Shown piece by piece: positions 8,691 through 57,040 of a stretch of 64,000 nt of DNA. The notes below the pieces were generated by a model. The model was given only the letters and a program-made list of their open reading frames with translations, did not search any database and was not told the DNA's origin. Positions within the stretch are counted from its first letter, which is position 1, and the number at the start of each line of letters is the position of its first letter. The stretch lies in contig OX597832.1 in assembly GCA_951406725.2 (NCBI GenBank), forward strand, positions 10,974,001-11,038,000, written 5' to 3'. Both the position numbers and the translations under genes were made by a program. Origin of the DNA: Octopus vulgaris (lineage: Eukaryota).

Positions 8691-9140
8691 AAATGGTACT
8701 TAAGTTAAAGGCACCAGAATGTGGTATTGTATTATCCATATAAATCAAATGGTCTGATTATAATCAAAATAAGGATATCCAAAGGTAGGATAGTACAATC
8801 GTTTCATGCTACTTCATTTAATTAAACAATGTAAGCATTACATCATTATTATACTTATTCCATTTGCCAATATTACAAAGAGAGTACGTATATAGGCAGA
8901 GAGGGGAATTTCATCAATAAAATCATGGTAGTAGAAGACCTTAGCTCATGGGCAATATTAGTAAATGGAATAAGTATAATAATGAACATTGTTAATTAAA
9001 TTTTTTAAAATTACATATGTGGCTGAAGAGTGCTCTACATTTTAAAACTGACGTAATACTTACATTGTTTAATTAAATGAAGTAGCATGAAACGATTGTA
9101 CTACACTACCTTTGGATATCCTTGCTGCTTATTTTAGTTT
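8691..9140. mobile_element. Fold-back non-autonomous element between (TA)n tracts, probably Penelope-like pLTR-derived
   Basis: Inverted arms 8771-8845 / 9049-9123, inner inverted pair ~8844-8874 / 8954-8984, hammerhead motif at 9018-9105; same family as 50801-51220. Confidence 0.7.
9018..9105 (+). ncRNA. Type I hammerhead ribozyme motif (canonical core)
   Basis: UGUGG-CUGAAGA-GUGCU...AGCAU-GAAA-CGAUUG-UA^CUACA; stems I, II and III all pair; predicted cleavage after 9100. Confidence 0.7.
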
Positions 9141-10119
9141 ATATATATATATATATATATATATATCGATTTCTATATAATTTCATGCGTAAATCTAAAC
9201 GTACTTGAAGAAGAATGCACACATTCACATAAACAAGCGGTTATCTGATTTCACGTGTAGATACGTCGTAATATTCAGTCACATATGTAGGCGCATCCAT
9301 ATACATTAACAGCAGAATGGGAGGGAAACAATTACAAGATCATGATACCCAAGACGACTAGTAATATAGATTCATTTATACCTATTTCGGTAGGAGCAGA
9401 AAAGTACACGAAAAAGAAATACATGTAGAGAGATAGACAGGCAGACTGATAGACAGACAAGGACATAAACAATCCTTGCTCTATCTTTTCATTCTAATTT
9501 AATATATCTATGGTTTTCATTTACTTCAAATGACAGGCTTTTTATTGCAATATTTCTCTAGAGTTGAAATCGATTTTTCTGGAATCCCTCCCATGTAAAA
9601 ATGCCTGGTAATTATAAGATTAATATAGTCTTTTATATAATATTAACTCCAATGGATATTGTCAAGAATCTGAATTTTCAAATATGTTTAGCAGTTACGA
9701 AACGATTAACTGTTATTAGATATTATTTATTAGGTTTAAATCTTTCATATTTAATAATAAAATCAAAATTACTCATCTCGTATTTATGCACTAATGTTTA
9801 TCTACAAACACTAATATTATTATTTATTGTCATTTTAATTCAAAAGATGATTTTGCTTACCCTCCAGCCTACGTTACTTCATTTCACTATTCTTGTGTTT
9901 GCCTGCACACATACACACACACACATATGCATGCGCGTGCACACCCACATACACACATGCGCGCACACACACTTACACACACATACACCTACGTGGGTGT
10001 ATGTGTAGAAGGAAAAAGAACGCGAACAATTGAATTGTTAGATTAATAGAAATATATATATATGCATCTTCTCTCGCACTTTTTCTTACTATATCTATCT
10101 ATCTATCTAACTCACTCTT

Positions 10120-10174
10120 TCTTTCTCTCTCTCTCTCTCTCTCTCTCTCTCTCTCTCTCTCTCTCTCTCTCTCT
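10120..10174. repeat. (CT)n microsatellite
   Basis: Directly visible. Confidence 0.95.
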
Positions 10175-11871
10175 GTAACACACACACAAACGCACGCATA
10201 GTATGAGGTGGCGCATATTTTCGCTGTAAATCTGTAATTAAATATTTTATATCGGACATTTTATGCAGCAAATATTAACGCCAGAACCAATTAAATTATG
10301 ATTTAACATGATTAAATAGTTTTAATGCCATCACAATATTATATTTGCAAAATTTTGTTCTATTGTTTACTTTTATAATAATTATTATATTTCTGGTATT
10401 TGTGTATTCATTTCTTTCGTTGCACAAACGAGAATAGCTCACTCTTTCTTGGGTATGCATAACGCTTTGTTTTATGTTTCTTTTGAATTAAAATTATTCT
10501 GTATGATGTGCTTTATGGTGCCAGTTCTGTACGTTGATTACAACAAAAGAGCCTCTGCACAGTCGTTTAACCTGCAATAATTAATATTCAAATCTCCCTC
10601 AGATCTTTATCTACACTTTTCAAAAGAGGGTAAATTAGTCAGTGCAGTCTCTGATACGAAAAATAACGAGAAGTTCATGCCTTCTTGAACGCTTTTCCAC
10701 AAGAATAATGGATTCAACTTTATTCTATTGCAGTTCTGATTACTATTATACTAATGAAATAATTACGTTCGGTAAATAATTACGACAATAAAATGAAAGA
10801 GATTATACAACATCAGATGGAAAACTTCAGATATTCGCTCACGGTGTTTCTGTAGTGAGTTCAAATCTGACTGAGAAGATATGTTACTTTATTCTTTTCA
10901 AGGATAAATAGATTAATTGTTTATTTAGAACTATAGCTGGTTCTTCTGTATTTGACGTTTAAAAAGAAATAGGTAGTAGCTAAGCTTTGAAAGCGATGGA
11001 CACCAATGATGTTATATGCGCAAGATATGCTGGACCGCATGTCGCTGCTCTATGGAAATATAATTATTCAAGGCCTGAAAATAGTTAATAATAGCATTGT
11101 GGAGATTTTCGCGAGTTTTAAAAGTAGCAATATCCTAGCAAACATGTAGAATAGTGTTTATATCACTTGATATATAGTGTAAACATATAGGAGACAAAGA
11201 TACCGTTTTTCTTTCACTTGCAGACGACAAGCTTAACTGTAATATTCTCGGTTATAGTAAAGCAGATATACATTTAATCTACGTTACGTGGTTCAAATTG
11301 CAAACGAAAGATCTCAAGTTTTCGCTAAAACTGTTAGATATAACAATTTTATTAACTTCCTGTGGCTCTCAACTGCACTGATTGGGATGGGATACATTCA
11401 ATAATGCATTTCCCCATGTGATATGCTCGGAGCATGAACGAAATTATCACGACTGGAACACTTTTGATCATACGTCCATTCTGTGAACGCTAACCTAGAC
11501 ACGGACACAATCAACAACAGCAATAACAAATATGAAGTAATATATCATATGAAAATCAATTTTGTGTTAATTACATTAGATTCTACATATATAAATTTAT
11601 ATATAAAGGACGTTGTATGTGGTAAGAAATCTCAGATTCTTATTAATGGATATAAAGAAATATTTTGACAAGAAAGTTCGAACAAAAACATTCTCCATAA
11701 CATAAATAATATTGCGTGTATATGTCAATGTAGATGCCTGATTGATGAATAGAAGGTATACTCCAAATTCTAAAAGGAAACGTAACGAAAAAAAGACAGA
11801 AAAATCAACAATGCTGTGTTTATATCGGTTGAAACCATTTTTCTGTGTTCTGTATGTGTAAGAATCTAATA

Positions 11872-55202: not shown

Positions 55203-55566
55203 TACTCTTACTCTTTTACTTGTTTCAGTCATTTGACTGCGGCCATGCTGGAGCACCGCCTTTAGTCGAGCAAATCGACCCCGGCACTTATTCTTTGTAA
55301 TTCTATCGGTCTCTTTTTGCCGAACCGCTAGGTGACGGGGACGTAAACACACCAGCATCGGGGACAAACACAGGCACACAAACACACACATATACATATA
55401 TACGACAGGCTTCTTTCAGTTTCCGTCTACCAAATCCACTCACAAGGCATTGGTCGGCCCGGGGCTATAGCAGAAGACACTTGCCCAAGATGCAACGCAG
55501 TGGGACTGAACCCGGAACCATATGGTTGGTTAGCAAGCTACTTACCACACAGCTACTCCTGCGCCT
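55203..55566 (-). mobile_element. SINE family A with internal deletions
   Basis: tacttgtttcagtcatttgactgcggccatgctgg...acagctactcctgcgcct. Confidence 0.92.
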
Positions 55567-56780
55567 ATATATATATATCTATATATATATTTTCGCCAAA
55601 ATATGCTTTGGAATTCATTTTGGGTATATGTGAGAGCGTTATGTGAACTTAACACTATTCAATATGAAATTGTTTTAACCACATGCAAGTGTTTTTCTTT
55701 TTATGTAGGTCTCAACTGGTTATCTTTTTTCCCTTCAGCAGATTTTCTTATACACTGAGCTATTTTCAAGACTGAATATACTTCCGTTTTGTGTCATTAG
55801 ATTTATCTTTAATATAATGGTAATGGAATCCTTAAGCTACATATCATTTACTCGAAATAATAATTTAGTACGGTTGATGACACCGATAACTATTTTTTTT
55901 TAATTTCTGAAAATATTATTTTGTAATAGGTTCATACACAAACATTTGTCATGAAACATTTCTGTGATTAGGTTTCTAAACTCCGATTTCTTAATTCCAA
56001 AAGCTTATATTCATTCATAGAAAGATGTATACATTTTCTTATTTGTTTTCATATATTTGTACAATATTCATTACTTAGTGCAAATCAGAGTCGCCATATA
56101 TATAAATTTTATGCAATTAGGGTTTACAGTCCCGATGTATGCGTTTCAGACAACTCAGATCTTTAGTTAAACAATCAGAAGTTACGACATATGGAGAAGT
56201 TCTTTATTATTAGGAGGTTCCAGTTTATTTTGAGTCCACCCGGAAGTTCTATGGATTTGTTACATAGTTCAGTGTATTTTATATTAATAATTTTGACTAC
56301 GTTTATACAAGCAACGGGAAATCAGACTGAGAGATAAGGATTACTTGCCTTTAGGGGGAAGAGAAAAATGAACACAACAAACGTAAGTAGCTGTTTTCCT
56401 GAATAACGTCATGAAAAACACCTTATCTAAAATAACAAAACCAATCCTTTTCCGCGTGAAATTAGTTTACATGTATAATACTCCCTCACTTCTCTCTATT
56501 TACATCATCATTATTAAATAAAATACCAGTTACTATGTACAGTGTGTTTACGTATTTGTTAATTCATAAATATACATGCAGAATCCTAGAATATACTTAA
56601 GTATTGAACCTAGAAAAGCAAACAACAAACAGTAATTAAGCCTGGAAAGGTACAAGGCAAGAAGGGAAAACTTAAACTATTACTGCCGAGGTTAGAATTT
56701 AAAAACTAACAGATTAAACAAAACATTTTTCTTTACATTTGCATGTTTAAATTAAAATACTCAAGAAGCCGTTCGTTCTC

Positions 56781-57040
56781 AATTGCAGCGTGGTAGGTGT
56801 TTATAAACCATTTCAAAATACACAAAACCATTGGATTCACTTCAATATTTAAATTTAATTTTCGTTGCTCTGAAACCGCAACATGTTCATTGACAGAATT
56901 CCGTGCTGCATCTTGTCAGTGAACAGATCGCGGTTTCAAAGTGACGAAAATATTTTGATAAATTAAACTTAAATATTGAAGTGGATCTAACGGTTTTAGT
57001 GTTTTTAAATGGCTTATGAGCACCTTTCACGCTGCAACTG
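56781..57040. mobile_element. Fold-back element (arms 56781-56895 / 56914-57040, ~18-nt spacer)
   Basis: ttgcagcgtggtaggtgtttataaaccatt...tgttcattgaca mirrored by tgtcagtgaaca...gcacctttcacgctgcaa. Confidence 0.85.
56913..56961 (+). ncRNA. Minimal hammerhead-like motif, G3-C8 variant
   Basis: UUGUCA-GUGAACA-G(A)UCGC gguuucaaa GUGAC-GAAA-AUAU-UU^UGAUAA. Confidence 0.55.

Follow-up and report, generated by a model that had tools for sequence, protein, structure and literature searches.

The 64-kb window of the Octopus vulgaris genome analysed here (G000:C19:10974001-11038000, from an AT-rich, 2.8-Gb genome rich in microsatellites) contains three palindromic fold-back elements, E1, E2 and E3, whose arms bear hammerhead-like ribozyme motifs. 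These palindromes are head-to-head 3' ends, or pseudo-long terminal repeats (pLTRs), of Penelope-like elements (PLEs) and not a new kind of mini-element. E1 and E2 very probably represent the paired, 5'-truncated pLTR ends of two coding PLEs, and E3 likely those of a third, each probably produced by a single two-sided insertion in which the motifs were passengers. The origin of E1 and E2 is established by reverse transcriptase (RT) and endonuclease (EN) frames upstream of their families, whereas that of E3 is inferred. Self-BLAST of the window recovered the three fold-backs where an initial annotation had placed them, with arms head-to-head and the motif reading outward. As that annotation also noted, two of the three adjoin (TA)n tracts: E1 and E2 do so at both ends, E3 does not. 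Its further proposal, that the elements are non-autonomous or retrozyme-like and share one architecture as a system of their own, is not supported. E1 and E2 are ends of coding PLEs, two PLE clades are involved, and fold-backs have been described before as by-products of PLE insertion.

No PLE open reading frame (ORF) lies within the window, and parents were sought through the families of the three elements, F1, F2 and F3. A first genome-wide look gave 1,674, 1,096 and 2,512 candidates, respectively, of which 40 per family were scored; alignments used the best 30 copies each and then every fetched copy, and 3' ends and fold-backs were tallied on copies sampled by search rank. Seven of 30 F2 loci continue upstream into common sequence with a GIY-YIG frame, and a 784-aa frame is present in all 10 fetched parent loci; Pfam recognizes RVT_1 and GIY-YIG in the one frame scanned. 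The parent motifs comprise GxKF, DKG, YLDD, a CX4CxxC linker plus GIY-YIG at the C terminus. The parent of E2 thus appears to be an intact, young Neptune-type PLE, the clade being assigned by motifs and not by a tree. Its pLTRs form a direct pair in four of the 10 loci and an inverted pair in two, with a 3' pLTR only in the other four, and the tail of the 5' pLTR runs on into ORF1. A genome search with the F2 RT returned at least 105 scored matches among 19,123 candidates, many with an open 784-aa frame, and those listed fall into two main families of ~98% and ~74% identity. The many intact frames suggest recent activity of these families. In 20 of 20 loci of both, the ~430-aa ORF1 and the RT-EN frame overlap at a slippery T TTT TTA sequence, behind which no hairpin is predicted. 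A PDB search found no relative of the PLE protein.

Upstream of the F1 pLTR, the RT and EN frames are broken and carry YRDD and EN motifs as well as the Hydra-clade motifs DKT, CxCX5C, CxxC and CxH. The RT remnant matches the Neptune-type PLE RT by BLASTP (E 1e-5), and the Atlas neighbours are RT-type clusters. An inverted pLTR stands at the 5' end in four of eight parent copies, all of which are broken and mostly 5'-truncated. E1 traces to a decayed PLE that appears to be of the Hydra type. Next to one F1 parent copy is an exon-like frame (L237:2493-2873, minus-strand count) with HEIGHALG, which we take to resemble a matrixin metalloprotease.

Mapping of the arms to PLE ends, which the initial annotation had proposed as a check, succeeded for F2 with intact parents and for F1 with decayed ones; no parent ORF was found for F3. 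The PLE origin of F3 is inferred because it shares with F1 and F2 the two kinds of 3' end, the AT-rich targets and the inversions, and E3 likely consists of PLE ends too. F3 pLTR pairs occur in inverted arrangement only, and the family is present in sequencing runs under seven organism labels. Several routes to a parent were abandoned: sequence upstream of L065 is not shared by other copies, and a tail query, a tail-plus-C/G pattern, an all-against-all comparison of upstream sequence and the upstream stretches of a sister family, F4, reached no ORF. Some F3 copies (L155, L156, L065) sit directly after another PLE family's pLTR or (TA)n, indicating that PLEs accumulate at the same AT-rich sites.

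F3 is also the best case for supposing that the fold-back, or a short unit of ~225 nt, is itself a mobile, non-autonomous and retrozyme-like mini-element using its own ribozyme. It is short, abundant (6,116 genome-wide matches to the exact core pattern) and lacks a detected ORF, and its 5' end is strongly preferred ~60 nt before the cut site. We regard this as very unlikely, since F1 and F2 form the termini of coding PLEs, the centres of the fold-backs differ between copies, two F3 copies reach further upstream, and insertions are copied from uncleaved RNA; moreover, the arms are head-to-head, and the first 100 F3 matches include no head-to-tail, same-strand neighbours. Even less credible is a reading as MITE or Foldback DNA transposons in which hammerhead-like strings arose by chance. 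Their long inverted arms, short size and TA-rich sites would fit, but the RT/GIY-YIG parents already refute it for F1 and F2. In addition, arm ends are unequal, centres variable and single arms frequent, there are no matching fixed terminal inverted repeats, and ten shuffles of 1.04 Mb of fetched loci gave no descriptor match combining a Watson-Crick 3-8 pair with GAAA.

The reading of the fold-backs as two-sided PLE insertions is carried by the arrangement of their ends. Two alternative 3' ends, one tailed and one short, are found in F1, F2 and F3, and 52 of 56 fold-backs combine one tailed with one short arm (F1 10/12, F2 12/12, F3 30/32; one F1 element is counted twice), which gives a p of 5.5e-12 against an expectation of at most 0.5. 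This one-tail-per-fold-back rule supports, from genomic data, the idea that the PLE protein primes on both sides. Fold-backs contain 23 of 98 sampled 3' ends in F1, 23 of 79 in F2 and 64 of 115 in F3, and most sampled F1 members are single arms. Non-repetitive duplications of 8-15 nt flank the whole fold-back in 10 of 32 F3 cases, although these were counted without a shuffle control; most other F3 fold-backs lie in (TA)n, where target duplications are unreadable. Fold-backs might instead arise without priming on both strands, from one cDNA snapping back or from later local inverted duplication. The E2 arms are indeed 97-98% identical with common minor variants, and many F3 centres lie at a short self-complementary stretch. 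Such an origin is nevertheless improbable, as it does not account for one arm ending at the tail and the other exactly at the short end in so many fold-backs. The arms of L075 also carry different subfamily loops and thus point to the use of two templates. Joints between opposite strands are likewise seen among raw reads and in the contigs of other runs, and are therefore not assembly errors. Finally, PAc, the Poseidon protein of Anolis, cleaves and extends both strands and has two start sites (Frangieh et al. 2024, PMC11167929).

The RNA copied in these insertions seems to have been uncleaved. Among 117 F3 5' ends, 58 fall 56-62 nt ahead of the cut site and two no more than 3 nt from it (the reference reaches no further than -62), and the same preferred position recurs in 9 of 27 arms of a tail-selected sample. 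In none of F1-F4 do 5' truncations pile up at the cut site. The F3 5' ends are in line with an uncleaved RNA template. For the E2 transcript, folding gives one hairpin of -240 kcal/mol, and a fold-back, whose two motifs lie on opposite strands, cannot provide the dimer for cleavage. We propose that the PLE RT/GIY-YIG protein would nick both strands of an AT-rich site and copy PLE RNA from both sides in one event. By extension from in vitro work on PLEs, reverse transcription would be started from the tail site on one side and from the short site on the other, and both cDNAs would stop early and have their ends joined at the centre. The copied RNA would be uncleaved and the fold-back transcript would hide the motif in its long hairpin, so that the hammerheads would be passengers in fold-backs while being selected in master elements. 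Among master families the 3-8 pair would have flipped between C-G, U-A and G-C, always paired, and cleavage would occur only in tandem parent transcripts, slowly, probably as dimers or helped by the PLE protein.

The motifs themselves are real at the family level: copies of F1, F2 and F3 satisfy a hammerhead descriptor (stems I and II, palindromic stem III, UH at 16.1/17) in which the 3-8 pair is left free and positions 3, 8 and 13 are unconstrained. All three cores of the initial annotation are present, CUGAAGA in E1, UUGAUAA on both strands of E2 and GUGAACA in E3 (Table 1). The 3-8 pair is C-G in 72 of 82 F1 copies, U-A in 65 of 65 F2 copies and G-C in 95 of the first 100 listed genome-wide F3 core matches, an unbiased sample, which bears out the Watson-Crick pairing claimed. 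Among aligned F3 copies, 57 of 77 are G3-C8 and 13 of 77 G3-U8; the latter count is inflated by a U8-bearing query (2/100 in the unbiased sample), and a G3-U8 subfamily was dropped. G12, A13, A14 and A15.1 are kept in F1 and F3. In F2, position 13 is C in 64 of 65 copies and A in none; both E2 arms read GCAA in place of GAAA, which the initial annotation did not mention, while an F2 sister family combines U3-A8 with an intact GAAA at the homologous position.

That each of the three elements carries a hammerhead is accordingly only partly right. E2 is without A13 and the left arm of E1 is coreless. The E3 copy is decayed, its right arm having A at 10.1 where the family has G and failing the descriptor and its left arm lacking stem III, so that intact F3 motifs occur only outside the window. 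The stem III strings are present in all three elements, but that of E1 is self-complementary solely if G-U pairs are allowed. An intact F3 copy adopts the predicted hammerhead fold, with a stem I of 8 bp and a stem II of 5 bp (z -2.8; 4 of 200 shuffles equally good), whereas the E3 copy does not. Within the window the descriptor gave three matches (9023+, 26382- and 26495+), all in E1 and E2, against two in 12 window shuffles, neither Watson-Crick at 3-8. As the initial annotation predicted, standard searches miss these motifs: at the Rfam gathering score there were no hammerhead matches in 10 loci containing F1, F2, F3 and the F2 sister family, and none among the 150 listed of 310 matches in an Rfam scan of the window.

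Table 1. Features of the three fold-backs and related loci. Positions are window coordinates unless a locus (L) is given.
Feature	Position	Strand	Description
E1 left arm	8693..8953	-	F1 pLTR with tail; hammerhead core deleted
E1 right arm	8963..9143	+	F1 pLTR to short 3' end, followed by (TA)n
F1 type I hammerhead motif	9018..9105	+	Stem I 5 bp; stem II 5 bp with inner hairpin, 49 nt enclosed; C3-G8 core at 9023; GAAA at 9089; predicted cut after 9100
E2 left arm	26271..26438	-	F2 pLTR, short 3' end; adjoins (TA)n
F2 hammerhead-like motif, E2 left arm	26349..26386	-	U3-A8, C13; core at 26382
E2 right arm	26440..26645	+	F2 pLTR with tail; adjoins (TA)n
F2 hammerhead-like motif, E2 right arm	26491..26528	+	Stems I and II 4 bp each; U3-A8 core at 26495; GCAA (C13) at 26515; predicted cut after 26524
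E3 left arm	56780..56910	-	F3 with the short 3' end; decayed motif (A3; 12-nt deletion spanning stem III and the cut site)
E3 right arm	56911..57102	+	F3 with 60-nt tail, through which E3 extends
F3 hammerhead motif, E3 right arm	56913..56961	+	G3-C8 core at 56919; extra G; GAAA at 56946; predicted cut after 56955
Fourth fold-back	50802..51220		F1 3'-end and tail pieces; no hammerhead core left; absent from the initial annotation
F4 loci	L056:2690-2925; L190:1-480; L263-L282		U3-A8 sister family
F4 fragment	13830-13889		
Young PLE families, example loci	L160:1559-5139; L169:1485-5116		ORF1 overlapping the RT-EN frame

A search allowing any 3-8 pair, as the initial annotation had advised, was run on 1.04 Mb of fetched loci and gave 136 distinct matches in 20 hammerhead-like clusters: nine C-G, eight U-A, one G-C and two unpaired, one of these in an ATG repeat. 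Watson-Crick pairs thus occur in 18 of 20 clusters compared with 10 of 36 matches in ten shuffles (Fisher p 1.3e-5), but four of the clusters were deliberately sought (among the other 16, met incidentally, 14 have a Watson-Crick pair) and clusters may be related. Nine of the 20 have a Watson-Crick core without C3, so that surveys based on CUGANGA or Rfam undercount motifs with a reversed or swapped 3-8 pair. One hammerhead-like group, L080:1877-1986 and its relatives (L023, L050, L073, L098, L101), reads CCGACGA, with C at conserved position 4, in five of 11 close copies; its master may have had C4, with U4 arising by CpG decay. A decayed copy (78%) of another U3-A8 hammerhead family lies at 19405-19505 of the window and is intact in L014 (198-307), L058 and L194.

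F4 is a short, often fold-back family with a U3-A8 core (494 candidates; 14 of 20 fetched copies pass the descriptor). Its colinear alignment with F3 outscores all 300 shuffles in each of eight pairings, though by as little as 1 point over the best shuffle, and judged by this similarity it is likely the sister of F3. In five chosen copies of each, the two families differ by two double-sided changes, G3-C8 against U3-A8 and C-G against U-A in stem II. No C3-G8 sister with F3 flanks was found. The natural G3-C8 core, the U3-A8 sister with compensatory changes and the young PLE with C13 would seem to be new or unreported.

Cleavage is fairly probable for the F1 master motif, stands at about an even chance for that of F3, and is unlikely for that of F2, with its C13 and a stem I of 2-4 bp. 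Cofolding of two monomers predicts a stem-III dimer for F2 and its sister and other pairings for F1, F3 and F4; monomer cofolding is uninformative on dimer cleavage. No RNA run is listed as containing F3, and the RNA reads listed, from a sample of 6 in 100, do not cover F3 position 3 or 8. No back-joint indicating circular RNA was seen among the reads listed from one poly-source Illumina run. We suggest tentatively that F3 may be the first natural, fully reversed G3-C8 hammerhead that cleaves, with more than 6,000 copies and presence in several related species, and that together with the U3-A8 families and the young PLE lacking A13 it may belong to a hidden layer of PLE ribozymes missed by CUGANGA and Rfam searches. 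If so, it would become possible to ask whether PLEs need cleavage at all.

Several observations weigh against parts of this account. On the parental side, Pfam detected neither RT nor GIY-YIG in the F1 parent frames, and the RWK motif was not found in the eight broken, mostly 5'-truncated copies, so that the putative Hydra assignment depends on motifs in broken frames. No ORF adjoins F3 in 70 copies and 20 tail-selected loci; two of the 70 (L090, L149) share ~90 nt of extra upstream sequence, which is CA-rich. Likewise, no F4 parent ORF was found, and the six of 20 F4 copies that extend upstream do so only into CA-rich tracts. On the ribozyme side, the youngest F2 parent examined has a motif without A13 and with a 2-bp stem I, as also holds for stem I in the youngest full-length copies. 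Within F3, 23 copies changed at both positions 3 and 8 include no C-G, six A-U, three U-A and 14 unpaired or wobble combinations; these look like decay, with no compensatory signal. The covariation between F3 and F4 is two events between two families and not eight. One RNA run, finally, showed no pile-up of ends and had reads on both strands at similar depth.

The window has some further features. Two perfect inverted repeats (100% identity; 493 nt and 483 nt) occur at 5538-6817, which sits in TA tracts, and 13026-15510, and may be of recent origin or a peculiarity of the assembly. Inverted pairs of 120-150 nt with 70-76% identity and ~1 kb spacing, at 28668-29730, 41659-42874, 47502-48962 and 56576-57785, probably represent a pair of dispersed repeats lying in opposite orientations. 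On the minus strand, 30186-30818 contains a 211-aa open frame whose composition is ordinary.

Much of this organization is known. PLE pLTRs have been described as carrying minimal type I hammerheads (Cervera & De la Pena 2014, PMC4209133), including ~1,300 matches with a U3-A8 core in Schistosoma, UUGAUAA in its Fig. S3, and opposite-strand hammerhead pairs 100-700 bp apart. PLE ends in inverted arrangement, U3-A8 cores and opposite-strand pairs are thus already known. Those hammerheads resemble the present ones in their type I topology, in having a short stem I, a palindromic stem III and often an extra nucleotide before stem II, in lying in the pLTR, and in occurring mostly as single truncated copies; low dimer activity is also reported there. 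The 49-nt stem II insert of F1 is longer than those listed there. The text and Fig. S3 rows of that paper covered here contain no G3-C8 core and no GCAA box. In the literature covered we found no natural G3-C8, although Lunse et al. (RNA Biol), on small PLE hammerhead variants, or supplement file 1 of PMC4209133 could list G3-C8 or C13. Natural U3-A8 is known, and A13 is counted in the consensus core (PMC3088659). Natural 3-8 covariation, as far as these sources describe it, runs from C-G to U-A only, and G-C completes the set; it also places C at position 8, the base carrying the general-acid 2'-OH.

Animal non-LTR retrozymes (PMC7229834; bioRxiv 10.64898/2026.07.22.740005) are likewise small, non-coding, PLE-related and equipped with a type I hammerhead. 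They are arranged head-to-tail in tandem with circular RNA, in contrast to the head-to-head or single elements described here.

Inverted 5'-truncated copies, the tail, (TA)n targets and the clades of PLEs were set out by Craig et al. (2021, PMC8557442). The F2 parent resembles the Neptune-type EN+ PLEs of that account in its GxKF, DKG, YLDD, CX4CxxC and C-terminal GIY-YIG motifs, its tail, an upstream ORF1 with a -1 slippery overlap, (TA)n targets and direct as well as inverted pLTRs. It differs in the C13 hammerhead, the 2-bp stem I of the youngest full-length copies and the lack of a predicted hairpin behind the slippery site. The F1 parent shares with Hydra-clade PLEs DKT, CxCX5C, CxxC and CxH, the canonical C3-G8 core and (TA)n insertion; its eight copies differ in being all broken and without a detected RWK motif. 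For the role of PLE hammerheads, a young PLE family with many intact ORFs but no A13, beside an A13-keeping sister, offers a natural comparison.

The closest experimental counterpart is the PAc in vitro system (PMC11167929), in which both strands are cut and extended, two RT start sites bound the tail, AT-rich DNA is preferred and the RNA template is uncleaved. Our fold-back model resembles it in two-strand priming, two start sites, AT-rich targets and an uncleaved template. There, an engineered C3G/G8C double mutant partly restores cleavage; G3-C8, a laboratory mutant in that system, is here the natural majority state of F3, in thousands of copies.

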